This document shows positions 1,060 to 48,729 of a stretch of 64,000 bases of DNA, one piece after another. Positions within the stretch are counted from its first letter, which is position 1, and every line of letters begins with the position of its first letter. A program made the translations under genes and the position numbers. Under the pieces are notes generated by a model that saw nothing but the letters and a program-made list of their open reading frames with translations, searched no databases and was not told the DNA's origin. The stretch comes from a bacterium (GTDB lineage: Bacteria > Patescibacteriota > Patescibacteriia > JACPHY01): the NCBI GenBank assembly GCA_030646955.1, contig JAUSKM010000015.1, positions 285 through 64,284 of the forward strand, read 5' to 3'.

Positions 1060-1190
1060 CCCTCCTTTGTCATTTCGACAAGTCCGCGAGGAGAAATCTC
1101 ACCCATCCTTCCCGTCATTTCGACCGACGGAGTCCTCGAGGGAGTGGAGAAATCTCACCCATGCGTCGAACGGGCTCGAAATGACGGGGA
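1060..1190. repeat. Composite of MITE-like palindromic elements (GTCATTTCGA / GAGAAATCTCAC / TCGAAATGAC modules)
   Basis: gtcatttcgac...gagaaatctcaccc...cgtcatttcgaccgac...gagaaatctcaccc...tcgaaatgacgg. These are inverted repeats of the same module seen at 9864, 48108, 7841 and 24851. Confidence 0.6.
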
Positions 1191-1300
1191 GGAGAGCGGC
1201 GCGAGATTCCTCGGTCCCTCTTCGCGCGCGGAGCGCTTCGGAAGGACAAGCAGACCTCGGAATGACATGCAACTTGATATCTCGATCGGATAGAAACACA

Positions 1301-3055
1301 TCACTTCGTCTCTCGCACGTCCACCACCTTCACTTGCGCATCGCGGCGGCCGTTCCACTCATTGATGTCCAGCTCGTACACGACATCAATGCGATTGCCT
1401 ATCGCGATGTTCGGGCAGATGTCCGCGTAGCGAAAGCAGACGAGCGTGTACTTTTTTCGATCCTCCTGCACGCCAATTCGGCAATGTGCGCCGGTTGCGC
1501 CCATGGTGCGCACGTCGGCAACGGTGAGCCCGCGCGCGAGAAACCGCGGCTGCGGATTGCCAATGCCAAAGGGCTCTAGCTGCTCCAACTGCTCCGCGAG
1601 CGCCAGCGTCGCATGCGCAAGTGGCAGCTCGGCATCTACCGCAATGGTCGGAACGAGGTCTGCGTCCGTCAGCGTCGCACGGGCGTACGCCTCGATGCCA
1701 TCGCGGAACGCGGGGATGGCATCCACTCCCGTCAGCGTCAGTCCGCACGCTTGCGGGTGGCCGCCGTATGCCGCCAGCGTCCCACGCACCGCGTCCAGCG
1801 CGCGGACAATGTGGAATCCGGCAATGCTGCGTCCGGATCCCGTCACGCGCCCGCCAGCGGTGGTGAGCGCGATGGCCGGCCGATGGTGTCGCTCTTTGAG
1901 CGCGCTCGCCACAAGCCCCACGATGCCCGGCGGCCACCACTCGCCTACCACCACCAGCGTCCGGCGATCGCCCAGCTCCCCCACTTGCGCAAACGCCTCC
2001 TCGTTGGCGCGCAGCACCAGCTGCTGGCGCTCGCCGTTCGTCGCGTTGATCTGGTCCGCAAGCTGCGCGGCCTCTGCTGCGTCCGTAGTGCGCAGAAGAC
2101 GCAGTGCAACCGATGCGTGGTCAATACGCCCGGATGCATTGATGCGCGGCGCGATTTGGAATCCGATGGTGCCCGGCGTGATGCGCTCCGGCACAATCTT
2201 TGCAATCTCGTAGAGCTTCTGGAGGCCGAGGCGCCGCGTTTTGGCCAACACCAGAAGCCCATAGCGCACGATGACGCGGTTCTCGCCCGTGAGCGGCCCA
2301 AAATCCGCCACGGTGGAGATCGCCGCGCAGTCGAGGAGCCATTTCGCAAATCCCTCTGGCAAACGCCGATCGCTCCGCTGCGCATCGTGCTGCACAATCG
2401 CCTCGCAGAACTTCAGTGCCACGCCGCCACCCGTCAGCTCCTGGTACGGGTACTGCTCGCCGCGCGCCTTCGGGTGCAGGATCGCAAACGCCGGCGGCAG
2501 TGCCTCGGCACCAGATGCATCTGTCGGAATAAGATGGTGATCGGTGATGACGACATCAATGCCGACCTCGCGCGCCGCTGCAACAGTTGCCGCGTTCGCA
2601 ATGCCGCAGTCGCACGTGATAATGACCGTCGCGCCCAGTGCTCGCGCGCGCGCAAGGCCGGGCTCTTTGAACCCGTACCCGTCCTCCTCGCGGTGCGGGA
2701 TGAACGCATCCGCGCTGCACCCGAATGCGGTCAGCGTCTCCGTGAGCACCGCCGCGCCCGACACGCCATCCGCGTCGTAATCGCCATGCACCAAAATGCG
2801 CTCGCCGCGCTCGCGCGCGAGAACAATTCGCTCCACGGCCTTGGCCATGTCCCGAAACAAACATGGATCGTGCCGGTGTGTATCGTAGTCCGGGTGCAAG
2901 AATGCCGCAATCGCAGCAGGAGAACGCATCCCCCGCTGGTACAACAGCTGTGCCACCGCTGGCGGCAGATCCGCATGCGCCGCCAGAAACTCCCCCGGAA
3001 CCTGCTCCGCCACCCGCCACTCCCGCGCCACGCGCTGCATCGCTGTGTACGACAT
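1301..3055 (-). CDS. recJ: Single-stranded-DNA-specific exonuclease RecJ
   Basis: 584-aa ORF with a DHH domain (ILVHGDYDADGVSGAAVL...ITDHH) and a DHHA1-like C-terminal part, typical of RecJ. Confidence 0.85.
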   Translation of the reverse strand: MSYTAMQRVAREWRVAEQVPGEFLAAHADLPPAVAQLLYQRGMRSPAAIAAFLHPDYDTHRHDPCLFRDMAKAVERIVLARERGERILVHGDYDADGVSGAAVLTETLTAFGCSADAFIPHREEDGYGFKEPGLARARALGATVIITCDCGIANAATVAAAREVGIDVVITDHHLIPTDASGAEALPPAFAILHPKARGEQYPYQELTGGGVALKFCEAIVQHDAQRSDRRLPEGFAKWLLDCAAISTVADFGPLTGENRVIVRYGLLVLAKTRRLGLQKLYEIAKIVPERITPGTIGFQIAPRINASGRIDHASVALRLLRTTDAAEAAQLADQINATNGERQQLVLRANEEAFAQVGELGDRRTLVVVGEWWPPGIVGLVASALKERHHRPAIALTTAGGRVTGSGRSIAGFHIVRALDAVRGTLAAYGGHPQACGLTLTGVDAIPAFRDGIEAYARATLTDADLVPTIAVDAELPLAHATLALAEQLEQLEPFGIGNPQPRFLARGLTVADVRTMGATGAHCRIGVQEDRKKYTLVCFRYADICPNIAIGNRIDVVYELDINEWNGRRDAQVKVVDVRETK

Positions 3056-3225
3056 AATGCCCGCAACCTACGCGCTCCCCGCCACCCGCTAAAAACTCAA
3101 CCCCACCCCCACGGTGAACGCGAGCATGCTCACAATAACGAGCACGCTGATGACGGCCCAAATGCGCTTGATGGTGTTATGGGACATACCGTGCAACAAA
3201 AATACTACAATCCATCGTACCACGC

Positions 3226-5157
3226 TCACCGCTTGAGCACGGCGATGTAGGCCTCCGGGGGGAGGTCAACACGGCCGGTGGCGCGCATGGCTTTCTTGCC
3301 TTTCTTCTGCTTCTCCAGGAGCTTCTTCTTGCGCGTAACGTCGCCGCCGTAGAGACCGGCAGTGACGTCCTTGCGGAGCGGCGAGATGCGGGCGCTGGCG
3401 ACAATCTTGCCACCGATCGCCGCCTGAATGCGCACCTCAAACTGGTGGCGCGGGATCACGTCCTTGAGCCGCTCGACGATCCGCCGCCCCACCTGCTGCG
3501 CTTCGTCCTCGTACACAATTGTCGCGAGCGATTCCTCTGGTTCGTCCACAACAAAAATGTCGAGGCGCCGCACGTTCGCCTCGCGGTGCTCGGAAATTTC
3601 GTAATTCATGGACGCGTACCCCTGGGAAACACTCTTGAGCCGATCATAAAAATCCACCAGCACCTTCGCAAGCGGCAGCTCGTACTTCAGGAGCGCGCGC
3701 CGTTGCCCCTCGATGCCGCCGGCAAGGTACTCCGTGGTGCGGTAGGTGCCGCGGTACTCCTGGCAGAGCTGCATGAGCCCGCCCACGTACTGCTCTGGCG
3801 TCACGATGTCCATGCGCACCCACGGCTCCTCAATTGCCGCGATGGACGACGGGTCCGGCAGCTCCTGCGGCGAACGGATGACTTCTCGCGCGCTGCTGTC
3901 CGCTTGGTGTTGCCGGCGCACCCAGTATGCAACACTCGGCACCGTCACCACCACGTCCATGTTGTGCTCGCGGATAAGCCGCTCCCGGAACACGTCCAGG
4001 TGGAGGAGGCCCAAGAATCCGCAGCGGAACCCCACGCCCAGTGCCTGCGAATGCTCCGGCTCCGCGACAAGCGCAGCATCGTTGAGGCGTAGCTGATCAA
4101 TGGCATCACGGAGCTGTTCCGTTTCATCCGAGTTCTTGGGGAACACGCCAGCGAACACCATGGGCCGCACGTCCTTGTACCCGGGGAGCGGCGCGGTTGC
4201 CGCGTACTTCGCGCCCGTCATAGTATCGCCAACGCGCACGCTTCGGATGTCCTTGAGGCCCGTCACGATGTATCCGATCTCCCCCGGCCCCACCTCGTCC
4301 GTCGCATAGAGCTTGGGGTTAAACGATCCCACCTCGCTGGCCTCTACCACCGTACCGGTGGTGAAGAATTTGAGTTTATCACCGCGCGCAACCGATCCGT
4401 CCACCACGCGCACATACGCGATGACGCCCCGAAAATCGTCGTACACAGAATCAAAAATGAGTGCGCGCAATCTCCGATCCCCCACCTCATCTTGAGGGGG
4501 GGGCGTCCGCACGGGTGCCGGTACCCGCTCCACCACCGCGTCGAGCAACATCGCAACGCCCTCGCCCGTCTTTCCGGAGACGGCAAGAATCTCCTCACGC
4601 GCGCATCCCAACAGCTCCATGATTTCCTGCGCCGTGCGCTCAACGTCCGCCGCCGGCAGATCAATTTTGTTGATCGCCGGAATAATGACGAGGTCCTGCT
4701 CCATCGCCAAGTACAGGTTCGCAATCGTCTGCGCCTGCACACCCTGCGTCGCATCTACGAGCAGGATTGCTCCCTCCACTGCCGCAAGCGAACGCGAGAC
4801 CTCGTACGTGAAGTCCACATGCCCGGGCGTGTCGATGAGGTGGAATATGTACTCCTCCTGATGATCCCCCACCTCCCGCTCGTCTGCGTCCGCCGGAGCG
4901 CGGAGGGAGGAGGGGCGAGGGGGGGTGGGCGTCCGCATCGTTCCGCCATGCGCGCCCAGCGTCCATCGCATGCGGACTGGCGCCAGCTTGATCGTAATCC
5001 CCCGCTCCTGCTCCAGGTCCATCTGGTCCAGCGTTTGCTGCTTCATGTCCCGGCTACTCACCGTTCCCGTGAGCTCCAACATCCGGTCCGCCAGCGTGGA
5101 TTTGCCGTGGTCAATGTGGGCGATGATGCAAAAATTGCGAATGGATGATGATTCCAT
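3226..5157 (-). CDS. lepA: Elongation factor 4 (LepA)
   Basis: MESSSIRNFCIIAHIDHGKSTLADRMLE...DTPGHVDFTYEVSRSLAAVEGAILLVDA. The ORF track extends upstream to 5394 as non-coding read-through. The gene carries two in-frame GC-hairpin insertions (see repeats at 4488 and 4864). Confidence 0.9.
   Translation of the reverse strand: MESSSIRNFCIIAHIDHGKSTLADRMLELTGTVSSRDMKQQTLDQMDLEQERGITIKLAPVRMRWTLGAHGGTMRTPTPPRPSSLRAPADADEREVGDHQEEYIFHLIDTPGHVDFTYEVSRSLAAVEGAILLVDATQGVQAQTIANLYLAMEQDLVIIPAINKIDLPAADVERTAQEIMELLGCAREEILAVSGKTGEGVAMLLDAVVERVPAPVRTPPPQDEVGDRRLRALIFDSVYDDFRGVIAYVRVVDGSVARGDKLKFFTTGTVVEASEVGSFNPKLYATDEVGPGEIGYIVTGLKDIRSVRVGDTMTGAKYAATAPLPGYKDVRPMVFAGVFPKNSDETEQLRDAIDQLRLNDAALVAEPEHSQALGVGFRCGFLGLLHLDVFRERLIREHNMDVVVTVPSVAYWVRRQHQADSSAREVIRSPQELPDPSSIAAIEEPWVRMDIVTPEQYVGGLMQLCQEYRGTYRTTEYLAGGIEGQRRALLKYELPLAKVLVDFYDRLKSVSQGYASMNYEISEHREANVRRLDIFVVDEPEESLATIVYEDEAQQVGRRIVERLKDVIPRHQFEVRIQAAIGGKIVASARISPLRKDVTAGLYGGDVTRKKKLLEKQKKGKKAMRATGRVDLPPEAYIAVLKR
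4488..4514. repeat. Small GC hairpin (CCCCCACCTC...GAGGGGGGGG) inside lepA
   Basis: cccccacctcatcttgagggggggg. It encodes the extra segment APVRTPPPQDEVGD relative to the canonical LepA alignment. Confidence 0.4.
4864..4934. repeat. GC-rich hairpin element inserted in-frame in lepA
   Basis: atcccccacctcccgctcgtctgcgtccgccggagcgcggagggaggaggggcgagggggggtgggcg. It encodes an insertion of about 30 aa, GAHGGTMRTPTPPRPSSLRAPADADEREVGDHQ, between the conserved KLAPVRM and EYIFHLIDTPGHVDF segments. Confidence 0.6.
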
Positions 5158-5200: not shown

Positions 5201-6802
5201 TCACCCTCGCGCCTCGTCTGCGCCACCAAAGGCACGGGGGACGGCGCGGAGGGCGTGACGACGGAGCGCGAGCGCAAGCGCGGTAATTTCATCGGATTTG
5301 AGGAGGATACCAACGGCAAGGTACGCCCCGAAGCCCAGGCCCCCTGCCAGGAAACCCTGCAACGCGATGCCGATGAATGTCTGTGTCCCCACAAGCGCGG
5401 CGATGCTGGGCTTCACCACCTGGATGACCACGCCCATGACGAGTGCAGCGATGAGGAATTTCCCGATGGCGATACCCGTACGCCGTCCATCCAGCCCGCC
5501 GGCGCGGCGACGCAATGCGACGAGGAGCGCGAGCGCCTGGACGATACCCGCGAGCGCCAACGCCAACGCGAGGCCCTGCGGACCAAATGTGCGACCCAGG
5601 AACCACGCAGCCGCGATGCCGAGCACATCCGCCGCCACGCTGATGACGAACGGCGTGCGCGTGTCCTCGAAGGCGTAAAACGCACGCGTCAAAAGCGGGA
5701 TGAGCATCGCAAAAAAGAGTCCAACGCCAAACGCCTCCACCGTTTCCAATGTTCGAACCGTATCCTCCCATCCAAACGCGCCAGCACCCAGGAGCACGCG
5801 GACGATCTGCGCTTTGAGTGCCAAGAGCATCACGACAGCAGGCAGCGCGAGGAGCGCGATCTGTCGAAACGTCGCAGAGAAATACTGCCGGAACTGTTCG
5901 ATGTCACCAGCAGCAACTGCGCTCGACAAGCGCGGGAATGCGGCGATGGCGAACGCGATGCCAATGAGCGCGATCGGCACATGTTGGATGTTCGCCGCAA
6001 ACGTAAACACCGCGAGCGATCCCGCGGCGAGCGTGGACGCAATGCCGGCGACGATGAGCAGCTGCACCTGCTGCGCGCCAAGCGATGCGACACGCGGGAG
6101 AAGGTTCACAAACAACAATCGCACCTCGCGATCGCGCCACGTTGGCGCCCACTGTACCCGCAGCCCCGTACGCGCCGCAGCCACCCATTGCATCGCAAGG
6201 TGCGCGGCAGCACCCAGCACCACGCCCCACGCGATTCCTACCGGGCCGAGCATCGGCGCCAGCGCGAGGACGCCGCCGATGATGCCAAGATTGTAGAGGA
6301 GCGGTGCCGCCGCAAACGCGAAGAAGCGCTCCTCTGCCTGCAATACGCTACCAATGACAGATGAGAGGCCTAGGAGTGCCGTCGCGATGAACAGGATGCG
6401 GCCAACCTGCACGGTGAGCGCAAGCTGCTCCGACGAAAACCCAGGCGCAATAGCCGCAAAGAGCGGCGTCGCCGCAAGTGCGCCAATGCTCCCACACAGC
6501 AGGAGGAGAAACGCGGCATTGGTGAACACCTGCGAGGCGAAACGATGTGCGCGGTCACGCCCACCCGCGCGCAGCCGAATAAAAATCGGCACGAACGCCG
6601 CGGAGAGCGCGGCGAGGCCAAGGAGGTTGAAGGCAAAATCCGGGATGCGGAATGCCGCGTAGTACGCGTCGAGTACCGACCCCGCACCAAACGTGGTGGC
6701 GAGGATGCGATCGCGCACGAGTCCCAGGATGCGGCTCGCAAGCGAGAGCGCTGCAATGAGCAGCGCGGAAGCGACGGTGGTTTGTCCCAAGCGCATAGGC
6801 AA
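5201..6802 (-). CDS. murJ: Lipid II flippase MurJ (MviN family)
   Basis: 533-aa polytopic membrane protein. N-terminus LGLVRDRILATTFGAGSVLDAYYAAFRIPDF is typical of MurJ. Confidence 0.85.
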   Translation of the reverse strand: MPMRLGQTTVASALLIAALSLASRILGLVRDRILATTFGAGSVLDAYYAAFRIPDFAFNLLGLAALSAAFVPIFIRLRAGGRDRAHRFASQVFTNAAFLLLLCGSIGALAATPLFAAIAPGFSSEQLALTVQVGRILFIATALLGLSSVIGSVLQAEERFFAFAAAPLLYNLGIIGGVLALAPMLGPVGIAWGVVLGAAAHLAMQWVAAARTGLRVQWAPTWRDREVRLLFVNLLPRVASLGAQQVQLLIVAGIASTLAAGSLAVFTFAANIQHVPIALIGIAFAIAAFPRLSSAVAAGDIEQFRQYFSATFRQIALLALPAVVMLLALKAQIVRVLLGAGAFGWEDTVRTLETVEAFGVGLFFAMLIPLLTRAFYAFEDTRTPFVISVAADVLGIAAAWFLGRTFGPQGLALALALAGIVQALALLVALRRRAGGLDGRRTGIAIGKFLIAALVMGVVIQVVKPSIAALVGTQTFIGIALQGFLAGGLGFGAYLAVGILLKSDEITALALALRRHALRAVPRAFGGADEARG

Positions 6803-6885: not shown

Positions 6886-7260
6886 TTATGACGCTACTGC
6901 TTCCTCCGAAACACGCCGCGCGCTTGCTCCCGCGTGCATCCCCTGCATCGTACCGGCCACTCGGTGACGCTTGCGCATCTGAAGCACCAGTTTGTCCTTC
7001 GCGAGGTCAATCGCTTCGCGGAGCGTATGATCGTCCTCCTCCGCAAGCCACTTGTATGTATCAACCGTCAGCGTCAGGGATACCTTAAACGCCTTCTTCT
7101 TGGCAAAGCGCTCCGCCCGGAACGTCAGCAACGGCTCTTCTGTTCCTGCAGGGAGACGCAGCAACGCCCGCTCAATCGTCTTTGCCTTCACGACGAAATA
7201 CTGCCGGCAGAAATGCTGGTCAAACTCACCCACCTTCTTGTAGCTGTAGGAAACCTTCAT
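6886..7260 (-). CDS. hpf: Ribosome hibernation-promoting factor / RaiA (YfiA/HPF family)
   Basis: MKVSYSYKKVGEFDQH...EEDDHTLREAIDLAKDKLVLQMRKRHR has the HPF-like pattern (cf. E. coli ...QDMYAAIDGLIDKLARQLTKHKDK). Confidence 0.65.
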   Translation of the reverse strand: MKVSYSYKKVGEFDQHFCRQYFVVKAKTIERALLRLPAGTEEPLLTFRAERFAKKKAFKVSLTLTVDTYKWLAEEDDHTLREAIDLAKDKLVLQMRKRHRVAGTMQGMHAGASARRVSEEAVAS

Positions 7261-7422: not shown

Positions 7423-7815
7423 TCAATCATCAACGCGCGTATTGTTTCGTGTATCGCCGAGTACTCCGAGCGCCGCTGCTGCCATGAACAAACCAAAATC
7501 GCGCACGGCGAGATCCCCGCGTGCCACGGCAGCGAGAATGGTCAAAAGGTGAAGCGCGACAACCGCGGCAACGATACGCACTCGCCACCCCACCACCAGC
7601 AACACGCCGAGGAGCACCTCCGCCACACCCACCACGCGCAGGAACTGCACGGGATCCATCGGCAACAATCCGATCATCCACGGCGGAACAAATCCCAGCC
7701 ACGACACGGTATCTGCAATCTTGCCATATCCAAAGATGAGCAGCACTGCACCCAACCCCAAACGCAACAGCAATGCCGCAGCGCTGGGGCCCGTAAAACG
7801 AGAAAGCATCCTCAT
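7423..7815 (-). CDS. DoxX-family membrane protein
   Basis: MRMLSRFTGPSAAALLLRLGLGAVLLIFGYGKI... contains four hydrophobic helices. The upstream 55 codons of the track ORF are repeat-element sequence (HCEHAKQSHT). Confidence 0.6.
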   Translation of the reverse strand: MRMLSRFTGPSAAALLLRLGLGAVLLIFGYGKIADTVSWLGFVPPWMIGLLPMDPVQFLRVVGVAEVLLGVLLVVGWRVRIVAAVVALHLLTILAAVARGDLAVRDFGLFMAAAALGVLGDTRNNTRVDD

Positions 7816-7840
7816 ACTTTGACAATAAAATTGGTGCGTG

Positions 7841-7876
7841 TGAGATTGCTTCGCATGCTCGCAATGACAATACTTA
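7841..7876. repeat. MITE-like palindromic element (GTGAGATTGCTTCGC...CTCGCAATGACA)
   Basis: gtgagattgcttcgcatgctcgcaatgacaata. Same module as 9917..9947. Confidence 0.6.
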
Positions 7877-7924: not shown

Positions 7925-9187
7925 CTACGGCTTGTATAATTCATCGATGGCCGGCTCCCACACCGTGCAATGACTTGCACCGCCTATCGCGAACAGTTTT
8001 TTGTCGGGGTAGCGCTTTTTCAGCTCGCGAAACACATCGATTGCATGTTCGTCGCGAACAATATTCATGTCCCGCAAGACATCGCTGGTGACCCTTCGTT
8101 CACCGACCAACTGCGGCTCGGTCATTTCGATAATCCTGGCCCTATCTTCTTTCCTTAACTCCGGATCATCGAACCGTTTCACAAGCTCCGCCAAGGAGAA
8201 GCCCATATGCCTCTGCAGCGAGGCATCGATATTTTCATTCGTGAGTTCGATGCCTAAAGAAACTGCCTCTTCAACGCCGCCCCCCGACAAAGCAACACCA
8301 CTACGTCTGCGTATCTCGTCGGCGGAGGGCCTCACATTGGATTCATGGGGTTTATTTTCGTCATAGGATGCATGGGCCCTGCGTGCGGCATAGGTGACCA
8401 TCCAGTCGGTCACATCTTGTGGTCCGTATTTGTGCTCACCGGTGGTTTCATCTTTCAACTTAAGGACCTCGCGAATCTGCTCGATTGTACGCGTATCCCA
8501 AGTCCGGACCTCTTTCCCTTCCCGCATCGCCAATAAAGCAATGTACGGCTCCTCCCCTTTTTCCGCGATAACCCGCGCGGGATCTTTTTTCAGGATTTCG
8601 CTCAACGACTCCCCCGGGTAGAAGTCCTCAAGCGAAAGTCCGCCTTCGATCAGCACGATGTCCGGATCTTCTTGCATCAACGCATCGACCGTGGGTTGCA
8701 TCGGCTCAACTGTATTTGCGTGCGCAAAACCACGTCCAATGAACTCCGCACCGTTTTCGGAACGTTTCTTGATCTCGTTGATTTCCTTACCGCTTTCGCG
8801 GGCCGCCTTCTCTTCCTCCGGCGTCAAAAGAAGGAGATGCAATTTCTCGATCTCAAGTGCATCCAAGCGCGCGCCACGATTACGCTCCACACGCACTTGA
8901 TCGTCGACCATATGCCCGTGTATTGCCTGCTTGGATTCTTTACTAATAATTCCTAGTGCCGCCTCCAATCCATCCACTTCTCCCTGATAATCCTCTTCTA
9001 GTGTTGCGCGCATTTCAGATTCGTCTTTCGAGGAATCCGCAGCATGAGACAGAAGACGAATATCTTGATCGATTTTCGTGATCCGCTCCTTGCGCACCTG
9101 GGCAATGGTCTCCGGGGTTTTCGCTGCAACTTTTTCCGGAACAGCCCCCATCGAATCCATTTTCGGCAGTTCTTTTCCCGAGGACAT
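7925..9187 (-). CDS. TraB/GumN-family-like protein (erythromycin esterase/TraB superfamily), likely horizontally acquired
   Basis: 420 aa. Contains a GxxH-like N-terminal motif (IGRGFAHANT) and a C-terminal xFAIGGASHC motif resembling the TraB-family VGAAHL motif. GC content is about 50% against about 66% in flanks. Flanked by direct repeats of the DoxX 5' region. Confidence 0.4.
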   Translation of the reverse strand: MSSGKELPKMDSMGAVPEKVAAKTPETIAQVRKERITKIDQDIRLLSHAADSSKDESEMRATLEEDYQGEVDGLEAALGIISKESKQAIHGHMVDDQVRVERNRGARLDALEIEKLHLLLLTPEEEKAARESGKEINEIKKRSENGAEFIGRGFAHANTVEPMQPTVDALMQEDPDIVLIEGGLSLEDFYPGESLSEILKKDPARVIAEKGEEPYIALLAMREGKEVRTWDTRTIEQIREVLKLKDETTGEHKYGPQDVTDWMVTYAARRAHASYDENKPHESNVRPSADEIRRRSGVALSGGGVEEAVSLGIELTNENIDASLQRHMGFSLAELVKRFDDPELRKEDRARIIEMTEPQLVGERRVTSDVLRDMNIVRDEHAIDVFRELKKRYPDKKLFAIGGASHCTVWEPAIDELYKP

Positions 9188-9205: not shown

Positions 9206-9286
9206 TCAAGTCCGTTTTTCTCTCGTGCACAAACGCAACAGAAACGCCGCGATCTCGGAGCCCGTAAAGCGAAAAAACATCCTCAT
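9206..9286 (-). pseudogene. Duplicated DoxX 5' fragment (26 codons then stop)
   Basis: The minus strand reads MRMFFRFTGSEIAAFLLRLCTREKRT*. About 80 bp (9232-9292) duplicates 7770-7830, including gcccgtaaaRcgaRaaaRcatcctcatactYtgacaat. Confidence 0.55.
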
Positions 9287-9414
9287 ACTCTGACAATCAT
9301 CTTCGTCACCGCGTCCTGAAATACGCGAAACGCCTTCCGCCACTCTTTCTTGTGCGTGTATTGATCGTCATTGCTGACACGTACGCAGTACTGACACCCA
9401 CACCAATGATACCA

Positions 9415-9867
9415 TCAGTGTGCCTTCGGGTACGCGCAGTTTACCATCCACTGCACCCCGAACCGATCCCGAACACTCCCGTAGTAGTCACCCCATGGCT
9501 GGTCTGCAATATCCATCTCCACCGTGCCGCCGTCTGCAAGCGCATGGAAGATGCGATCCGCCTCCTCCTTGCTGTCGGGATGAATGGAAATGTACGCGTT
9601 ATTTCCCTGCACCAACTTCTGCCCAAGCGACGGCAGCGTGTCCGAAGCCATGAGCTTATCGTCGCCAACTGGAAGGCAAATGTGCATCATCCCGTTCTCC
9701 TCCTCTTTGGGAATGTGTACGCCTTCCATCGGCATGTCCTTGAACCGCACCCTGGAGCTGAACTCCCCGCCAAAGATGGAACGGTAAAACGTGAACGCCT
9801 CCTCTGCATTCCCGGCAAAGTTGAGATACGTGTTGAGTTTTATATTCTCCATTTTTCCATCTGTCAT
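9415..9867 (-). CDS. VOC-superfamily protein, PhnB-like (3-demethylubiquinone-9 3-methyltransferase-like domain)
   Basis: MTDGKMENIKLNTYLNFAGNAEEAFTFYRSIFGGEF...MHICLPVGDDKLMASD...DRFGVQWMVN matches PhnB/glyoxalase-like proteins. The start codon overlaps the first bases of the repeat element. Confidence 0.6.
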   Translation of the reverse strand: MTDGKMENIKLNTYLNFAGNAEEAFTFYRSIFGGEFSSRVRFKDMPMEGVHIPKEEENGMMHICLPVGDDKLMASDTLPSLGQKLVQGNNAYISIHPDSKEEADRIFHALADGGTVEMDIADQPWGDYYGSVRDRFGVQWMVNCAYPKAH

Positions 9868-9947
9868 TTCGAACGCAGCGAGAAATCTCACACGATCCAA
9901 TAACTGCCGACACGCGAGATTGCTTCGCGGACTCGCAATGACAGTAC
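9864..9947. repeat. MITE-like palindromic elements (two modules)
   Basis: gtcatttcgaacgcagcgagaaatctcacacg ... gcgagattgcttcgcggactcgcaatgacag. Confidence 0.65.
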
Positions 9948-9977
9948 GTATGTGATGCCGTGAAATTGCAATCGTTA

Positions 9978-11294
9978 TCATCCTTCGTACGCCCGCTGCA
10001 GCTGCTCCACATCAAACTTCTTCATCGCGAGAAATGCCTTCGTCACACGCGCACGACGTTCTGGATCCTCATCGCGCATCATCGCGTCCATTGCCGTGGG
10101 CACGATCTGCCAGGAAACGCCGTACGTGTCCTTGAGCCATCCGCATTGCTCTGCTTCCGGCACGGCAGAGAGCCGCTCCCAAAAATAATCGATCTCCGCC
10201 TGCGTATCGCACCGTATCAGGAACGAGAATGCCTCATTGAACGTAAACGCATGCTTATGCGCGCTGTCCATCGCTATAAACTGCTGCCCTACCAACGCAA
10301 ACTCTCCGTACATCACCGTCCCCTCCTTATCCGGCGCAGCATTCGCACCGTACCTACTCATATCGCCCACCTTCGCATCGCGAAATACTGACGCATAGAA
10401 CCGCATCGCTTCCTCTGCTTTCCCGCACCGCTCTCCAACGAACAGAAGCGATGGGGTGATGCGCTGGATACTCTTGCGACCGTCCATGCATATGAGCTGC
10501 CACGAGAGGCCATACCGGTCTTGCACCCATCCGTACCGCGTACTGAACGGATATGCACCAAGCTCCATCAGTACTTTCCCGCCATCCGCAAGCTGCTCCC
10601 AGAGCGCGTCCACCTCCGCAGGCGTTGCGCACGCGACCATGAATGAGATTGCCGGAGTAAATTGGAAGTACGGCCCTGCGCTGATGCACATGAACTCCTG
10701 CCCCGAGAGCACAAAGGACACAACATCTACCGCGCCAGAAGGCGTCCCCTGCAACGTAGTTACATACTCCACGCGCGAATCCGGAAAAAGCGACGTGTAA
10801 AATTCCGCCGCCTCTCGCGCCTCCTTGTCGTACCAAAGGTGAGGCACAATTTTTTGCATAGTGGCAACCTCCACCGTGCCGCGCTCGACGTACCGCTTGA
10901 AATTGGTGAGGATCGCCTGCCAACCATCCCGCTGCATCTGCTCCGGATTCAGCGACTCCGGATCAAACGTCTCGGTCACGTATACGTGCTCCAGCATCTG
11001 CGTGAACGTCACGCGCACATGCCGACCGTCATCCATGTCGTACTCGATCAATGCATACTTGCGAACGGCAGCATGCGTTCCCGAAAAATCAAACCTTGCG
11101 CTGCCATCCTTTGCAGCCATCACCGTCGTAAATCGTCCACCCACACGTACATCATTCTCCGCCGACGGCGCCTCCTACTCATCCGACGCAAACGCCCAGC
11201 CGACAATGTGCTCCGACTGCGTAAAACACTCCCACACCCTCGCCATGGGAGCGCGCACATCCACGTCCACTGTGATTGGCTGTTGTTTGTTCAT
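9978..11294 (-). pseudogene. SRPBCC (AHSA1-like) + tandem PhnB/VOC-domain protein interrupted by an in-frame TAG at a conserved Trp position
   Basis: [76 protein letters not shown]... is in a single frame (RC of cta at 11175-11177). Homologues read ...FASDDWHAPYAENDLRVGG..., so TGG is replaced by TAG here. Confidence 0.55.
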
Positions 11295-11541: not shown

Positions 11542-12378
11542 TCAATCACCTGAGAGAAACTCGGCCCATGCCGCACACTCCTCGAGGTCGTCGGTATCGA
11601 TGAGGCGGTCGCAATCGTTGTCGACGTGATCATTGCACACCTCTTCATTGCACGCGGGATCGCAGGTGAGCAACGCTACAGGAGCATCACACTCCCAAAA
11701 CCCCTCCTGCAACAATCCGTCGTTCTCCCATATGCAGATCACGCCGATCCAATCACCGTCGTCCGTCACCCCGTCGCAGTCGTTGTCGACGCCATCGCAG
11801 ATTTCCATGGGACATGCTGCGGTCGAATCGAACACACAATCGCCATCATCCCAATCCACCATGCCATCGCAGTCGTTGTCGGCACGATCATGACACAACT
11901 CGACATTCTCCTCACAGGACGGACCTCCAGCGATAGGGAGCCCGCATGAGAGCGTTGTGTGTGGCACGCCCTCTGTACCGGGAGCCCCGCACGTACGCAG
12001 GCCTGCATTCACTGCATCCCAGTACTCCATGTAACACGCCTGCTCTTCCCAAGGACCATTGTCCGTGATACCGTCGCAGTCGTTATCGATACTATCGCAG
12101 CGCTCCTCAGAGCACTCGGTCGCGTCATCGCCGGAATCATCATCCGCGCTGACGGCATCATCGTCGGATGTGTCGCCGTCGTCGTTTGCGGTTGCTTGGG
12201 AGTCATCGTCGGTGATGACTCCATCGTCGTCCGCTGCCATCGTATCGTCATCGACGGAAGTTGCGACGCTATCATCGTCTCCAACCGGAAAACTTCCTTC
12301 CGGCATATCGCTCCCGCACGCCTGCACTGCCGTTATGAGCGCCGTGATCATGGAAAGAACCAACCATACGGTACGCAT
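11542..12378 (-). CDS. Secreted Cys/Asp-rich repeat protein (DNDCDG 'putative metal-binding' type repeats)
   Basis: Signal peptide MRTVWLVLSMITALITAVQAC. At least four repeats of C-x-D-x-DNDCDG-x-x-D(W) (CDSIDNDCDGITDNG, ADNDCDGMVDWDDGDC, CDGVDNDCDGVTDDGDW, VDNDCDRLIDTDD). Acidic low-complexity N-terminal region. Confidence 0.55.
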   Translation of the reverse strand: MRTVWLVLSMITALITAVQACGSDMPEGSFPVGDDDSVATSVDDDTMAADDDGVITDDDSQATANDDGDTSDDDAVSADDDSGDDATECSEERCDSIDNDCDGITDNGPWEEQACYMEYWDAVNAGLRTCGAPGTEGVPHTTLSCGLPIAGGPSCEENVELCHDRADNDCDGMVDWDDGDCVFDSTAACPMEICDGVDNDCDGVTDDGDWIGVICIWENDGLLQEGFWECDAPVALLTCDPACNEEVCNDHVDNDCDRLIDTDDLEECAAWAEFLSGD

Positions 12379-12591
12379 CCGCACCTCCTTCTTTGTTCCC
12401 CGCAAATATACATCCAAGCAGCCTCTCCGTCAAGTTCCCCAAAATATATTCACCAAAAAGCTAATCGTTCGACGTGTTTCCACGGATGTCAAAAACCCCA
12501 CCGAAGCAGCGAGGCCATTGACATCTCCGCATCGTGAACAATGCTAGAGCCGCGGTACAGGAACATCGATAATACATCCGACTCCCCACAA

Positions 12592-14368: not shown

Positions 14369-16171
14369 CTACTCCATAATGGGCGCGGCTGCGGTGCCTC
14401 GTGCCGGTTCGCTCGCTGCGATGACGCGGGAAGAAGCGAACACCTCCAGGGCGGCGTCAACGGTGGTGTCGCCGGTGGCGGGGCGGCAGGCGCGGTCGAG
14501 CTCTTCAAAGTGCTCCACCGCAATCGCGACGGGATCCAGGTGGAGGGGCGTGCCGACGATGCGTGCGATGGCGCTGGTGAGCGGCTCTATGATGCCGGGC
14601 TGCCGCACTTTCTCCGCGTGGAGCTTGTAGCGGAAGCCGATGGTGAGCGTCCCGTCTGCAATGCGTTGCGGGCGACCGCCTTCCAGGAGGTACGGGATGG
14701 AGCGGTTGACGTCCGCGAGATCGCGGATGATGTGGTGCCATTGTTGCTGGACTTTCGAGAGCGCCTCGGTGGCGCTCTGGATGACGGTGGATGTTGGAAG
14801 TTGCTCCCTCCTCCCGGCGGAAGGGGGAGGAATAAAACGCACCCCCTCTGACTCCCCCTCTTGAAGAGGGGGAGGAACCGGATCGGATGTATCTGTTACC
14901 GTCGTTGGGAGTTTGATGCTTGCAGGGGTACGAGCGCGCGAGGCGTGTTGGGGGGTACGGGCTGCACCGCCGGTGGTGGCGGGTGGAGCATCGTCGTCAT
15001 TGCTCCGCGATGCGTCTCGCTGAGACGAGGCGAGCTGCGCGGGATTCATTTTGCCTGGTGATGCGCTCGCTGCGGGCGCTGCGGGAACGAATGGGGAGCG
15101 CGCGAGGAGCGTAAGGACGGCAACCTCGAGGAGGAAGAACGGACGGTCTGCACGACCGATGCGATCCAGGAGTTCCGTGAACATGCGAAGCGCGAACACC
15201 TGTGCCGTCGCAACGGCACCTTGCTGGGCGGCAGCGCGTGCGGCGCTGCGCAGCTCGTTGATGATGTCGCGACAAAACGCATCCGCATCGCATCCCTCGG
15301 CTGATGCAGCATCGAGCGTGGCCAGGGCCAATGCGGTGTCGCCGGCACCAACCGCGCGAAGCAGCGTCTGGACATGCACCATGTTTGATTGCGGGAGCAC
15401 GAGCGCGGCAACATCGGCCGTCACTCGCTTCCCGCCCACCGCCATGAGCTGCCCCAACAGGGATTCTGCGTCACGCACGGAGCCGTCTGCCGCGCGGACT
15501 ACCTGCGCGAGCACCTCGTCATCCACGGCAACATCCTCTACCCCTGCAAGCATCCGGAGCCGCTCCGTGAGCGTCCCATCCCCCACGCGCCGGAACGTAA
15601 AATGCTGGCACCGTGACGTGATCGTCTCCGGCACCTTCTGCATTTCCGTTGTCGCAAGGATGAAGTGGACGTGCTCTGGCGGCTCCTCCAGCGTCTTGAG
15701 GAGCGCATTAAAGGACGCCGTCGAGAGCATGTGCACCTCGTCAATGATGTACACCTTCTTTGCTGCAACTGCGGGGGCGATACGCACCGCCTCGATGATG
15801 TACTCACGCACCTTCTCCACCTGCGTGTTGGATGCCGCATCAATCTCCACGACATCCATGCAACGTCCTGCGGTAATTTCCTCGCACCGGATGCAGGCGT
15901 TACAAGGCACGGGAAGTGTTTGCTTCGACCGGTGCTTCGCGCGAGTTTCTTCGTCGCTCCGCTCCTCGGAATGACGAGGAGCGAGGCAATTCACCGCCTT
16001 CGCCAGGAGCCGCGCGGTGGTGGTCTTTCCAACGCCGCGCGGACCGGAGAAAAGGTACGCATGCGCAACACGACCCGCCGCGATAGCCGCGACGAGCGTG
16101 CGCGTGACATGCTCCTGCCCCACGACGTCCTCAAACGTCTGCGGGCGATGCTTACGATACAGTACGGGCAT
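14369..16171 (-). CDS. dnaX: DNA polymerase III subunit gamma/tau
   Basis: MPVLYRKHRPQTFEDVVGQEHV...FSGPRGVGKTTTARLLAKAVNC...EIDAASNTQVE. Long A/P-rich C-terminal region. Contains two in-frame repeat insertions (15950 and 14803). Confidence 0.9.
   Translation of the reverse strand: MPVLYRKHRPQTFEDVVGQEHVTRTLVAAIAAGRVAHAYLFSGPRGVGKTTTARLLAKAVNCLAPRHSEERSDEETRAKHRSKQTLPVPCNACIRCEEITAGRCMDVVEIDAASNTQVEKVREYIIEAVRIAPAVAAKKVYIIDEVHMLSTASFNALLKTLEEPPEHVHFILATTEMQKVPETITSRCQHFTFRRVGDGTLTERLRMLAGVEDVAVDDEVLAQVVRAADGSVRDAESLLGQLMAVGGKRVTADVAALVLPQSNMVHVQTLLRAVGAGDTALALATLDAASAEGCDADAFCRDIINELRSAARAAAQQGAVATAQVFALRMFTELLDRIGRADRPFFLLEVAVLTLLARSPFVPAAPAASASPGKMNPAQLASSQRDASRSNDDDAPPATTGGAARTPQHASRARTPASIKLPTTVTDTSDPVPPPLQEGESEGVRFIPPPSAGRREQLPTSTVIQSATEALSKVQQQWHHIIRDLADVNRSIPYLLEGGRPQRIADGTLTIGFRYKLHAEKVRQPGIIEPLTSAIARIVGTPLHLDPVAIAVEHFEELDRACRPATGDTTVDAALEVFASSRVIAASEPARGTAAAPIME
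14803..14878. repeat. Pair of GC-rich hairpins inside dnaX linker region
   Basis: ctccctcctcccggcggaagggggagg and ccccctcttgaagagggggagg. They encode ...DPVPPPLQEGESEGVRFIPPPSAGRRE.... Confidence 0.55.
15950..15992. repeat. MITE-like element module inserted in-frame in dnaX AAA+ domain
   Basis: ttcgtcgctccgctcctcggaatgacgaggagcgaggcaattc. It encodes APRHSEERSDEETRAKHRS between the conserved AKAVNC and PCNACIRC segments (E. coli has NCETGITATPCGVCDNC). Confidence 0.6.
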
Positions 16172-23927: not shown

Positions 23928-24176
23928 TCCTAGCTGCTCCACGCGAGATCCCTGGACGATCCTCGGAATGACGAGGAAAGGAAACTCTGTATGACGGGAG
24001 ATTAAAAGGGGGACCTCTGCAAAAGTTGTGTTATTGCGAGCCGAACCCGTGAAGCGTGGCAATCCCGGCGTTAGGTTGACCGAGATTGCGGAGCCTGTCC
24101 CGAGTACGCGATGGATCCGCGTGTGTGACTCCTCACCATGACACCGTAGGGTTTTTTGGAGGTCTCAAGGGACAAT

Positions 24177-24704: not shown

Positions 24705-24802
24705 ACTACTGCGCAGTCATCCACAGTATAGCACGCTGGGCAGAGTACGCACCGTAGAAATAATTTCTGAACGGGATAGAGGACGTTGTGGGTACCCTTG
24801 AT

Positions 24803-24966
24803 AGCCGGAATTGCCACGTCGAGGACTCCTCGCAATGACAATACCGGTGTCATTGCGAGTCCGCGAAGCAATCCCGGCCATGTGCAGCACTGTGCTGCGT
24901 CGCCATCGCAAGAGTCCTGCTATGGCCGGGATTGCTTCGTCGCTTCGCTCCTCGCAATGACAACGT
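24803..24966. repeat. Cluster of at least three MITE-like modules (GTCATTGCGAG...GCGAAGCAATCCCGGCCAT and inverses)
   Basis: ccggaattgccacgtcgaggactcctcgcaatgaca / gtcattgcgagtccgcgaagcaatcccggccat / atggccgggattgcttcgtcgcttcgctcctcgcaatgacaacg, lying between the membrane-protein gene and the dnaJ stop. Confidence 0.65.
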
Positions 24967-24998
24967 GGGCGTGACGAGGGGAATGACGGCTTCACGTA

Positions 24999-26189: not shown

Positions 26190-26312
26190 CCCTCCCTCTC
26201 CGCTTCCAGGGGAGCGGTGGTGCGATACCGCGCCACCGCACAGTCATACATGGCCACCTCTCCCCCTCTAGCTCCCCCTCCCCCCATGAGTACGTGCGGG
26301 GAGGGGGAGGAC
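26190..26312. repeat. Composite GC-rich hairpin element (about 120 bp), intergenic dnaK/dnaJ
   Basis: cctccctctccgcttccaggggagcgg...catggccacctctccccctctagctccccctcccccatgagtacgtgcggggagggggagg. Near-identical to 45800-45878 and, inverted, to 60161-60240. Confidence 0.65.
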
Positions 26313-26579
26313 AAGAACATCGGAGTCGCTGGAGACACTTTTCGCATCCGCCACAAATGGAAGCGCCAGCGCGATACCAAGCATCGCGAGGATCAACACC
26401 TTCGTACGACGTTGCATACAAAACTGCGGAAAATAAAAAAGCCGTCCGGCACAACGGCACAGGCGCGGCGTGCCTATACACTGTTGATGGTATACCCCCC
26501 CACAACACTGTAAAGGGTACGTCACGCACACCAGCGGAGCCGTTTCCGGCTCCGCTGGTGTCGCGTTATGCACTGCGCG

Positions 26580-29688: not shown

Positions 29689-29715
29689 ATCCTCTCCCTA
29701 CAGCATAAAAAAGTA

Positions 29716-29742
29716 TTGGCACTCTCGTCAAGAGAGTGCCAA
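29716..29742. promoter_or_regulatory. CIRCE operator (HrcA binding site) upstream of hrcA-grpE-dnaK
   Basis: TTGGCACTC-tcgtcaaga-GAGTGCCAA, against the consensus TTAGCACTC-N9-GAGTGCTAA. It lies 28 bp upstream of the hrcA start. Confidence 0.8.
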
Positions 29743-29778
29743 TACTCTCGGCGATTCGCTCGGTTTCCCCGGTGTATC

Positions 29779-29858
29779 CTTTGCGAGTCCGTGAGGGCGC
29801 AGCAATCTCTCTGCCTGATTGGCCGGGATTACCACGTCGCGGACTCCTCGCAATGACA
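29779..29858. repeat. MITE-like modules in hrcA promoter region
   Basis: cctttgcgagtccgtgagggcgcagcaatctc (degenerate) + ctgattggccgggattaccacgtcgcggactcctcgcaatgaca. Confidence 0.55.
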
Positions 29859-29943
29859 CAAACATACGAAATTCTACCTCTCAAAAAGAACGAGACCCGC
29901 ACTTTCGTACGGGTCTCAGGTAATACTCCTCGAAGTTTGCGGC

Positions 29944-43884: not shown

Positions 43885-44952
43885 TCACTGCGCTGCTTGC
43901 ATGACCACGCGCGCAAGCGTGGCGGCGGCGTTGTCGGGAAACATGGTGGCGATGGAACGACCGAGTTTGGCGCGACGGTTGGCATCCTCGAGAAGCGCAT
44001 GGATGCGTTGTGTGAAGACGCCGGGCGCGACGAGGGCCCGCGAATTCCAAACCTCCGCAGCACCGCGCTCGTTGAGTTGCTGCGCGTTGTCTTCCTGGTG
44101 AGTGGATGGCATGGGCACCAGCACCGTCGGTTTACCCAGGCACCCCAGCTCCGCGATCGTCCCCATGCCCGCACGACTCACCACAAGATCCGCAGCAGCG
44201 AGCGCGGGAATCATATCGTCGGCGAGAAACTCAAATTGTCGATAGGATCCGGCCCACTCCCCCTTCCCAGCGGGAGTGGGGGGAACATTGCCCTGCTTCC
44301 CTTTCCCCGTCACATGAATCACGTCGGCAATCGCCGTCAGCTCGGGCAATGCGGCCCAGACAAGGTGGTTGAGCGCCATTGCGCCGGTGCCACCGCCAAG
44401 AATGAGGAGTACGTGTCGATTTCCGGAGAATCCAAAATGCCGCTGTGCTTCGCGCACATCCGCCACGCACGCATCGCGCACGGCGGCACGCACCGGCACG
44501 CCGATGCCCTCAGCGCCAAATGTCGCCGTCCGCGCGGACGAAAACCGCGCCACAAGCGTGTTGGCCAATGATGGACGCGCGTCCAGTTGGTGGATGACGA
44601 TCGGGATGCGCAGCACGCGCGCCGCAAGCATCACCGGCACCTGCACGTATGACCCCGCGCCCACCACCGTATCTGGCCGCTCCCGACGCAGAAACGCAAG
44701 TGCGCGCACGAACGCCCATGCAATTGCAAACGCATCCACGATATTCCGCCCATCCAGGTACCGTCGCAGCTTGCCTGCCGGAAACGCGATGAACCGGATC
44801 CCGTCGCGCTCCACCAACACCCGCTCCGGCCCCCGCCGCGTCCCAATCCACATCATCACCGCCCGCGGCCGCACATGCCGAATCTCCTCCGCGACAGCCA
44901 AGAGCGGGGTCACCGATCCCAATGTTCCGCCGCCGGTGAAGAGGATGGTCAT
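43885..44952 (-). CDS. murG: UDP-N-acetylglucosamine--N-acetylmuramyl-(pentapeptide) pyrophosphoryl-undecaprenol N-acetylglucosamine transferase
   Basis: MTILFTGGGTLGSVTPLLAV...GT28 N- and C-terminal domains. A small GC hairpin (44256-44286) lies within a variable loop. Confidence 0.85.
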   Translation of the reverse strand: MTILFTGGGTLGSVTPLLAVAEEIRHVRPRAVMMWIGTRRGPERVLVERDGIRFIAFPAGKLRRYLDGRNIVDAFAIAWAFVRALAFLRRERPDTVVGAGSYVQVPVMLAARVLRIPIVIHQLDARPSLANTLVARFSSARTATFGAEGIGVPVRAAVRDACVADVREAQRHFGFSGNRHVLLILGGGTGAMALNHLVWAALPELTAIADVIHVTGKGKQGNVPPTPAGKGEWAGSYRQFEFLADDMIPALAAADLVVSRAGMGTIAELGCLGKPTVLVPMPSTHQEDNAQQLNERGAAEVWNSRALVAPGVFTQRIHALLEDANRRAKLGRSIATMFPDNAAATLARVVMQAAQ

Positions 44953-45656: not shown

Positions 45657-45728
45657 AGTGCGCTCCTTGATGCTCGGTGCTCGGAATCTGGGCTCTTCGC
45701 CCTTTTCTGTCGCTCATGCTCTGTTTGA

Positions 45729-45878
45729 TCCCCTCCCTCCCCGCGCGTACTCGCGGGGGGAGGGAGGGTTAGGGAGGGAGAGGTGGGACGGAATGGCAAC
45801 ATGGTACAGCCCATCCATAGCCACCTCTCCCCCTCCTGCTCCCCCTCTCCCCACGAGTACGTGCGGGGAGGGGGAGGG
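45729..45878. repeat. Composite GC-rich hairpin element (two hairpins plus conserved spacer)
   Basis: cccctccctccccgcgcgtactcgcggggggagggaggg ... cagcccatccatagccacctctccccctcctgctccccctctccccacgagtacgtgcggggagggggagg. Paralogous to 26250-26312 and 60161-60240 (inverted). Confidence 0.65.
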
Positions 45879-45885
45879 TAAGGAG

Positions 45886-48074: not shown

Positions 48075-48087
48075 TAGATGTTTCCGT

Positions 48088-48139
48088 CACCTTCGAGCGA
48101 TACTTCACTTCCGTCATTTCGAGCGCAGCGAGAAATCTC
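48088..48139. repeat. MITE-like element module
   Basis: gtcaccttcgagcgatacttcacttccgtcatttcgagcgcagcgagaaatctcacacg. Confidence 0.6.
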
Positions 48140-48183
48140 ACACGCAATACTCTATCGAACACGATACGGTTGACATGTACTGC

Positions 48184-48729
48184 TTACGAATGTTTCTCAA
48201 CCCCCACATCATGTGAGATTCCTCGGCCGACCTCGGAATGACGAGCAGAAGCATACCCCACCCCATTCATATTCCAGAGCAGCACGGTACCCACAAGCGC
48301 GGCGAATGCGAGGAGTACTGCGGCAGCGAGGAGGAACACAGATGCCGTGGCGGGCGCAGGCGCGTTGCGGGGCGTGAGACCAAATGCGAGCGCAATGTTG
48401 AATGCGATGAACGCCGAGCCCGTGCGAGCGATGCGCGCGAGATCATGCCATGAACCAAAGGCATCGATCCCAAACGTGGTAGTGTAATGCGTCACGAGCG
48501 ATGCCGCGTCCGGCACATTTGGCACCGCGAGCGCCGCAATCCATGCACCCGCGAGCAGTGCACCGGCCGCGACGGCCATCCAGCGCGTTTGCGAATTCGC
48601 GAGCAGTGGATGCGAAAACGCGCACACGCGCCGCACGCATGCACGCTGCACCCGCCCAACTGCCGTCCATAGCTCCCCCTCGCTCCGGGATGGAGCATCC
48701 GGGGAGATGCGGTCATCCATATGCCTCAT
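48184..48729 (-). CDS. Hypothetical membrane protein
   Basis: [11 protein letters not shown]...[19 protein letters not shown]... with about four hydrophobic helices. Start placed so as not to overlap rpmA. The C-terminal tail is supplied by the repeat element. Confidence 0.4.
48211..48243. repeat. MITE-like element module forming the 3' end (last codons + stop) of the membrane-protein gene 48184..48729
   Basis: gtgagattcctcggccgacctcggaatgacgag. It is translated as ...[11 protein letters not shown]. Confidence 0.6.

Follow-up and report, generated by a model that had tools for sequence, protein, structure and literature searches.

The DNA analysed here is a 64,000-nucleotide stretch of contig JAUSKM010000015.1 (assembly GCA_030646955.1, positions 285 to 64,284; hereafter the window) from a bacterium of the Patescibacteriota, and our subject is a family of short hairpin repeats dispersed through it. 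The window has a G+C content of about 62%, its minus strand carries nearly all genes, and the closest relatives of its DnaX protein are annotated as Candidatus Uhrbacteria or Patescibacteria. The repeats adjoin recJ, an RNase H-like gene, two PhnB-like genes, dnaX, the hrcA-grpE-dnaK-dnaJ operon, mraY and ftsW. Seven of the eight repeat loci are intergenic, all between co-directional minus-strand genes, and most of these begin 31–53 nucleotides (nt) beyond the upstream stop codon; the eighth lies in-frame in dnaX. The repeats are very probably repetitive extragenic palindromic (REP) elements of the CGTC-tagged superfamily, some standing alone and others paired as inverted dimers, a placement made by anatomy and at the level of the superfamily. 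An original prediction made from the letters of the window had described a dispersed family of nested palindromes lying mostly at gene ends, and both the family and its location proved genuine.

The core GTCATTGCGAG, allowing at most one mismatch, occurs 16 times in the window against 2.2 expected, a count reached in none of 100 shuffles. A covariance model was built from an alignment of 16 window units and one unit from a relative, and was run over the full 64 kb with filters off. It recovers the 16 training units with E-values of 1.7e-10 to 2.7e-4 and adds a single unit on which it had not been trained, 1141-1189 on the minus strand (E 0.034), below which there is just noise. This brings the window to 17 hairpin units across eight loci, mostly 28–40 nt long, with two long-loop units of 47 and 68 nt; five loci hold inverted dimers with the tags outermost. 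A unit is present at every position that the original prediction listed, and the three modules it quoted are exact (9863-9891, 7841-7868 and 24922-24962), but it overlooked the units 1199-1266(-), 23939-23972(-) and 24030-24068(+) and a possible decayed unit at 24100-24146(-). The loci and their units are as follows, with covariance-model scores in bits, folding z-scores as z, and stem variants T (ATTTC/GAAAT), G (ATTGC/GCAAT) and C (ATTCC/GGAAT).

Locus 1065-1270, four units
1069..1103, plus strand, T variant with TGTC tag and tail CTCACCC (37.9 bits, E 3.7e-9)
1114..1160, plus strand, T variant with CGTC tag, in an inverted dimer with 1143-1185(-) that has 18-nt arms of 94% complementarity (33.3 bits; dimer z -2.3)
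1143..1185, minus strand (model match 1141-1189), weak or overlapping unit (CGTCATTTCGAG...) that has the GAGAAATCTC core in common with the preceding unit (15 bits)
1199..1266, minus strand, C variant with a 40-nt nested-hairpin loop, 34 nt past the recJ stop (32.4 bits)
Locus 7834-7872, one unit
7839..7868, minus strand, single G-variant unit between the stop of open reading frame (ORF) 7925-9187 and the following gene start near 7810 (38.7 bits)
Locus 9859-9946, two units
9863..9893, plus strand, T variant, left half of an inverted heterodimer (34.9 bits; dimer z -2.2)
9912..9942, minus strand, G variant, right half of the heterodimer with 9863..9893, 35 nt past the stop of ORF 9978-11144 (41.3 bits)
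Locus 15935-15979, one unit
15937..15975, minus strand, C variant whose 3' arm (GAAAC) is degenerate, in-frame in dnaX (38.4 bits)
Locus 23937-24074, two units and a possible decayed third
23939..23972, minus strand, partly decayed C variant; the likely ATG (23926) of a secreted-protein gene follows 13 nt downstream (32.4 bits)
24030..24068, plus strand, G variant with GTT tag and tail CCCGGCG (30.4 bits)
24100..24146, minus strand, possible decayed unit with a different stem (GTCATGGTGAG...GGATCCATC), uncertain (11.7 bits, E 0.33)
Locus 24799-24965, three units
24802..24839, minus strand, G variant with tail TCCGGC, opening a three-unit cluster that lies downstream of dnaJ (36.1 bits; z -2.2)
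24849..24881, plus strand, G variant with a short loop and tail CCCGGCCAT, left half of an inverted dimer (37.4 bits)
24922..24961, minus strand, G variant with the long loop GAGCGAAGCGA, right half of that dimer, 37 nt past the dnaJ stop (42.2 bits, the best match; the dimer folds at -73 kcal/mol, z -8.9)
Locus 29772-29861, two units
29776..29815, plus strand, decayed unit (tag TATC, CCTTTGCGAG...GCAGCAATC), left half of a dimer (21.9 bits, E 2.7e-4; z -4.4)
29820..29857, minus strand, G variant with a G.T wobble (ATTGC/GTAAT), right partner of 29776..29815 (39.5 bits)
Locus 48109-48246, two units
48113..48143, plus strand, T variant and left partner in a heterodimer, about 45 nt ahead of the start of mraY (37.1 bits; z -4.9)
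48211..48242, minus strand, C variant with 9-nt arms ATTCCGAGG/CCGAGGAAT and the 4-nt loop TCGG (39.7 bits)

Read in a common orientation, the units have the layout (C/T)GTC, ATTNC, GAG, a variable loop, CGA(A), N'NAAT, and C followed by a tail. The tag is CGTC in six units, TGTC in nine and another form (TGTT, TATC) in two; among units from other genomes, C precedes GTC in about half. The basal stem ATTNC/GN'AAT has five base pairs, the fourth of which covaries. Among the 17 aligned units this pair is GC in six, UA in five, CG in four, GU in one and unpaired in one; its covariation score is matched by none of 500 shuffles, and sliding the partner position abolishes the pairing. The first pair is A-U in 15 and the second U-A in all 17 of the aligned units (147/149 and 149/149, respectively, in a wider set). 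In 149 further units, 99.3% of stem cells are paired and both-side changes occur at three pairs, and relatives carry the additional stem variants ATTCT/AGAAT, ATGCT/AGCAT and ATCCT/AGGAT. Beyond the five supported Watson-Crick pairs, positions 6–7 are G/A on both strands, and one or two further pairs follow; many loops are longer and nested. Tails in the window's clade are CTCAC(A/C), CTCGC or CCCGGCC, and CAG in most proteobacterial copies.

Loop length ranges from 3 to 45 nt. Loops of at least 9 nt are themselves hairpins, with GA at both ends in 84 of 165 and a closing stem of at least 3 bp in 39% of long loops versus 11% in shuffles. The term nested palindrome is apt because the long loops are again hairpins, half of which have GA at both ends once more. 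Either CGAG or CGA(A)G stands beside the basal stem on both strands. The 5'-CGAG-3' context is that of the tandem sheared G.A motif in the nucleic-acid structural literature, and the CGAG/CGA(A) flanks of the units may form such tandem mismatches. G-variant units also contain GCGAAGC, often twice, together with CGAG on both strands by the basal stem, and so recall the d(GCGAAGC)-type mini-hairpins; the resemblance to these and to sheared G.A motifs is a structural analogy only. A kink-turn reading of the G.A motif was rejected since the bulge and strand arrangement do not fit, and readings as attC sites or CRISPR (clustered regularly interspaced short palindromic repeat) repeats were rejected for want of R''/R' cores and regular spacing.

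The five inverted dimers fold into long hairpins, with z from -2.2 to -8.9. They are 80–135 nt long, and their spacers of 26–69 nt are unrelated in sequence and length. Dimer partners may differ in stem variant (T with G, T with C), and three of the five dimers mix stem or loop variants; the unit hairpin is therefore the conserved entity. No target-site duplication was seen, as no flanking direct repeat exceeds 3 nt at the 10 units or dimers checked, and no T-run follows the hairpins.

These features place the units among the CGTC REPs of Di Nocera, De Gregorio & Rocco (2013, BMC Genomics 14:522; PMC3733652), a superfamily with hosts in eight phyla. CGTC REPs have the tag CGTC, or TGTC or CCTC variants of it, stems of 8–9 bp that open with A-T then T-A, loops of 4–5 nt and a short unpaired tail with the consensus CCA. 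Most are inverted dimers, often heterodimers, that sit near the 3' terminus of an upstream ORF where the neighbouring genes are unidirectional or convergent. Intragenic copies also occur, above all in genes of replication and repair, and no dedicated or adjacent transposase is reported for the class (PMC3733652). The window units agree in the unpaired CGTC/TGTC tag and the A-T/T-A stem opening, and in part resemble the class in arms of about nine positions, short loops and a short tail. They agree likewise in their inverted (hetero)dimers, their sites just past ORFs between co-directional genes, the lack of an adjacent transposase, and in-frame copies in replication or repair genes. Bradyrhizobium, a published host genus, carries a G-variant unit. 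On the other hand, loops in our set are more variable (3 to 45 nt) than the published ones and often nested hairpins, and the host phylum, Patescibacteria, is outside the eight published phyla.

The class is known and widespread, and the family is an ordinary member of it; for the phylum, the literature searched held no earlier report. Searches against Rfam 15, at gathering score and again with E as high as 10, matched no family to the units, a literature search on the core sequence returned unrelated primer matches only, and a search for REPs in the candidate phyla radiation (CPR) turned up no published description. The range of REP-type repeats, and of their in-frame copies in essential genes, extends to Patescibacteria, and they parallel the Rickettsia palindromic elements (RPEs) of another reduced-genome lineage. 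RPEs, too, are small palindromes in a reduced genome that are inserted in-frame in essential genes and translated. The GTCATTCC reading with which RHSE... begins in the window also begins Rickettsia conorii peptides such as VIPAKAGI and CHSRESGNP, and dnaE carries an element in R. conorii as dnaX does here. Within the superfamily, RPE-4 of R. conorii is listed as CGTC-4 and RPE-6 as CGTC-1 (PMC3733652). By description, however, RPE stems are perfect and GC-rich with GAAA-type loops, RPE-1 is much longer, and the host is an obligate intracellular alphaproteobacterium.

The in-frame copy in dnaX (CGTCATTCCGAGGAGCGGAGCGACGAAGAAACTCGCGCG) encodes RHSEERSDEETRA and lies between the first Cys (VNC) and the PCNACIRC segment of the zinc module. 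The ORF is intact and all four zinc-module Cys are kept. The original prediction had correctly placed a copy in the AAA+ module between two Cys-containing segments, but its size is 13 amino acids (aa; 39 nt) relative to the nearest orthologue, rather than about 19. In a neighbour-joining tree the window DnaX groups with P0002 and P0003, whose loops are 13 and 11 aa versus 26 aa in the window, and because the 39-nt unit is absent from these two nearest orthologues it is a lineage-specific gain. DnaX proteins of the sister clade (P0004, P0005 and P0008) have a longer insert in the same zinc-module loop. At the DNA level this older insert is a decaying unit whose stem is ATCC(T/C), and its orientation and frame match those of the window copy. 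To judge from the sequences, this points to two separate insertions at one tolerant site, which would mark the zinc-module loop as a tolerant surface site of DnaX. Other proteins of relatives are similarly affected. RNase HII contains an in-frame REP dimer of 34 aa (TVSLRGSQATEAIPATRTNGIATPRSGSARNDNQ; L246 2781-2879), and a family 2 glycosyltransferase (GT2) contains a single in-frame unit (PCHCEPQRSNPGHC; L248 3580-3620).

A second palindromic family (CTCCCCCTCCCC...GGGGAGGGGGAG) is also present in the window, at 545-572, 14804-14831, 26245-26315, 44257-44284, 45728-45882, 56233-56260 and 60162-60220. Its copy at 14804-14831 lies in-frame inside dnaX as IPPPSAGRREQ, so that dnaX has inserts of both families, and the dnaX of relative L001 holds a similar second-family pair (1475-1552). 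In relative L124, a gene with 23S_rRNA_IVP/bAvd domains (9626-9976) is directly upstream of dnaX. Proteins of the 23S_rRNA_IVP/bAvd type accompany diversity-generating retroelements.

Several units reach into the borders of genes, mostly in a way that is milder than originally predicted. The unit at 48211-48242 was thought to supply the last codons and stop of a membrane-protein gene; it is indeed in-frame in the last 20 codons of ORF 48184-48909(-), near the C-terminal end, but the stop codon TAA (48184-48186) belongs to the spacer of the dimer. In unit 9863, the reverse complement holds an ATG (GAAATGAC) that is a potential start of the PhnB-like gene, as had been proposed; the overlap with the start codon is possible only, because a second in-frame ATG follows 15 nt (five codons) downstream (MTDGKMENIK). 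The peptide HCEERSDEA is encoded across a repeat, but its host ORF, 24717-24995, is spurious and reads through the three-unit cluster. For annotation this means that spurious ORFs, 24717-24995 among them, are created or inflated by the units, that the start and stop codons of genes can seem displaced, and that real proteins gain extra peptides.

Dimer 29776-29857 sits between an intrinsic terminator (29918-29891) and the hrcA promoter-like site with its CIRCE (controlling inverted repeat of chaperone expression) operator. As it comes after the terminator and before the hrcA promoter, it is probably untranscribed. The terminator (29891-29918, minus strand) is strong and follows the gene preceding hrcA. 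The CIRCE-like operator (TTGGCACTC-N9-GAGTGCCAA) overlaps the promoter-like TTGACG-18-TATGCT just upstream of hrcA (29702-29750, minus strand).

The motif is not confined to the window; it recurs in related CPR metagenome-assembled genomes (MAGs), in bacteria of many phyla and in viruses. A scan of one genome per species with the G-variant pattern GTCATTGCGAG-N3-25-CGAAGCAATC matched at least 120 genome stretches in more than ten phyla. The matches include Alpha- and Gammaproteobacteria (many of them Bradyrhizobium), Chloroflexota, Bacteroidota, Cyanobacteria, Planctomycetota, Desulfobacterota, Zixibacteria, Patescibacteria, Firmicutes and Helicobacter rodentium. CGAAG and GAGCGAAGCGA are the most frequent loops in the listed genomes, where a dimer typically combines one of each; the window dimer 24849/24961 has the same short-loop plus long-loop design as those of other phyla. 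Six related CPR loci contain units (L003, L124, L125, L246, L247 and L248). The tail CTCACAC is common to the window and L125, which suggests amplification within the lineage. Turnover is evident between cysS and the next gene, where L125 has a unit and the window counterpart is a bare 58-nt gap. Units also occur directly downstream of recJ both in the window (1065-1270) and in L125 (21043-21165), at about 50% protein identity and with a different next gene; this may reflect coincidence or long retention at the site.

The same G-variant pattern occurs in at least 120 viral contigs. One of these, L128, proved to be a genuine tailed phage, as its portal and major head genes show, and has units at 4355-4388, 5562-5587 and 7062-7093. 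In L128, L140 and L161 the units lie between structural genes in sense orientation, and within a contig all copies are on one strand; more generally, of 25 viral loci that contain two or more single units, 21 have all of them on the same strand. A stop codon occurs just upstream of a unit in L140 and L128, and a Shine-Dalgarno-like sequence after the tail in L161 and L128. Viral contig L171 carries four head-to-tail copies of a 25-nt unit with a 33-nt period (2695-2818). A search for a recurrent protein family beside the units found only shared phage structural genes. We regard it as rather unlikely, though worth stating, that the GA-containing CGTC hairpin (GTCATTGCGAG...CGAAGCAATC and its stem variants) is one family, near-identical in more than ten phyla, CPR genomes and tailed phages. 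If it were, recognition by a widely conserved host or phage enzyme would be implied and phages would be likely carriers between phyla. The reduced CPR gene set, with its Y1 genes that resemble REP-associated tyrosine transposases (RAYTs), would then be a small search space for the factor that mobilises or maintains CGTC REPs. The cross-phylum and phage distribution sharpens the question of what moves or maintains these elements.

We propose that the units are non-autonomous hairpin DNA that would have spread within the window's CPR lineage into tolerant sites, either just past stop codons between co-directional genes or in-frame in surface loops such as the zinc-module loop of DnaX. Movement would proceed via a hairpin of single-stranded DNA, on which a nuclease or transposase encoded away from the units would act in trans. 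Transcribed copies would fold in mRNA and may serve as 3'-end hairpins, as a side effect or secondary gain that not every copy would need.

RAYT-like Y1 genes exist among relatives. A relative's contig encodes a Y1_Tnp protein (PF01797) that scores 64 bits against the NCBIfam model REP_Tyr_transpos NF047646, below the cut-off of 80. The RAYT-like Y1 family is common in Uhrbacteria and Planctomycetota, and two copies are present in GCA_043805865.1, the REP-rich MAG of L125. Each of four CPR Y1 genes is bracketed by its own palindrome of the AAA(A/T)GACCC-N-GGGTC(A/T)TTT type or an equivalent, located as follows.

L001, 11277-11300 and 11995-12014, palindromes flanking the Y1 gene
L246, 5963 and 6694, palindromes flanking the Y1 gene
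L247, 480 and 553, palindromes flanking the Y1 gene
L248, 4765, 4822, 5572 and 6780, palindromes flanking the Y1 gene

These palindromes were not seen elsewhere in the loci examined, and they resemble IS200-like ends or a private REP.

A number of observations weigh against the proposal of mobile CGTC REPs. Published CGTC REP stems are perfect over 8–9 bp, whereas here five Watson-Crick pairs are certain and two G/A positions follow; the published tail is CCA, whereas ours are CTCAC or CCCGG. Single units are no more stable than shuffled sequence in RNA nearest-neighbour folding. Mobility is deduced from presence and absence between genomes at about 50–59% protein identity. A tblastn search for a Y1 transposase was negative in the window, and the covariance model finds no CGTC units beside the Y1 genes of the four related CPR loci. 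Y1 genes that lack adjoining CGTC units agree, for their part, with the lack of an adjacent transposase in the published CGTC REP description (PMC3733652). In phage L128 the major capsid gene is flanked by two sense units, and single units show a crude sense bias of about 2:1 (sense to antisense, viral loci 38:20 with p 0.025, bacterial loci 21:11). The sense bias and the capsid flanking could mean that RNA-level function matters more than we have assumed.

The explanation to which these last points lead is that the units are RNA elements, that is, intercistronic or 3'-untranslated hairpins kept by selection because they stabilise upstream mRNA, attenuate read-through or mark processing. We consider this possible, although it is the less likely course. 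It would account for the 31–53 nt spacing after stop codons between co-directional genes in most window loci, for the stop codons and Shine-Dalgarno-like sequences around units in L140, L128 and L161, for the one-strand consistency of viral loci and for the one G.U wobble in a stem. When orientation was judged from flanking ribosome-binding sites and stop codons, sense was not clearly preferred. Against the RNA reading, both orientations occur, the L125 units lie in a divergent intergenic region and antisense to flanking genes, and the dimer before hrcA is probably untranscribed. The coding copies in dnaX, RNase HII and GT2 also speak against RNA elements, as do the missing T-runs, the lack of an Rfam match at E up to 10 and the absence of a thermodynamic signal in single units.

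More doubtful is the strict REPIN reading, in which a cognate single-copy RAYT (Y1/HUH) encoded elsewhere in the genome would mobilise the units as REP doublets. Like REPINs (Bertels & Rainey, 2011; PMC3116915), which include the GTAG REPs of Pseudomonas and the bacterial interspersed mosaic elements (BIMEs) of E. coli, our dimers are intergenic inverted doublets that form one long hairpin, and they lack target-site duplications, as expected of Y1 enzymes. The RAYT-like family in related Uhrbacteria-like MAGs fits as well, the two-copy genome GCA_043805865.1 having the CTCACAC tail in common with the window. However, the tag here is (C/T)GTC and not GTAG, and REPIN families are lineage-specific whereas our unit sequence is common to phyla and phages. 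The NCBIfam score is below cut-off, the four CPR Y1 genes inspected have hairpins of their own at their flanks and no CGTC units, and no Y1 gene was found by tblastn in the window or in 120 REP-bearing genome loci. Dimer partners often differ in stem variant, and for CGTC REPs the literature reports no dedicated transposase (PMC3733652).

Improbable, in our judgement, is a role as duplex sites bound by a nucleoid or regulatory protein, in the manner of the gyrase and integration host factor (IHF) sites of enterobacterial BIMEs. The conserved non-palindromic flanks (GTC tag, CGAG and tail) and the intergenic position of units would suit such sites, but loop length varies from 3 to 45 nt, compensatory stem changes with three or more allowed pairs imply pairing rather than base-specific recognition, and the same sequence in more than ten phyla and phages makes a single regulator an unlikely explanation. 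Miniature inverted-repeat transposable elements (MITEs), deletion derivatives of insertion sequences with terminal inverted repeats moved by a DDE transposase, can practically be set aside: the dimers of 80–135 nt do have inverted ends and no coding capacity, but target-site duplications are missing at 10 units or dimers, single units of 28–40 nt are common, dimer spacers are unrelated, and the two 'ends' may be different variants that each keep their own internal complementarity, so that the label 'MITE-like' of the original prediction gives way to the REP and REP-dimer anatomy of tagged hairpins (PMC3733652).

Two further repeats in the window stand apart from the hairpin units. ORF 11542-12417(-) contains three direct repeats of about 52 nt within 11749-12100, which look like protein-internal repeats and not a DNA element. 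A 77-nt direct repeat of 78% identity occurs at 7759-7835 and 9230-9306, where it spans the opening codons, and the region upstream of them, of two minus-strand genes for membrane proteins that are apparently paralogues (MRMLSRFTG... and similar).

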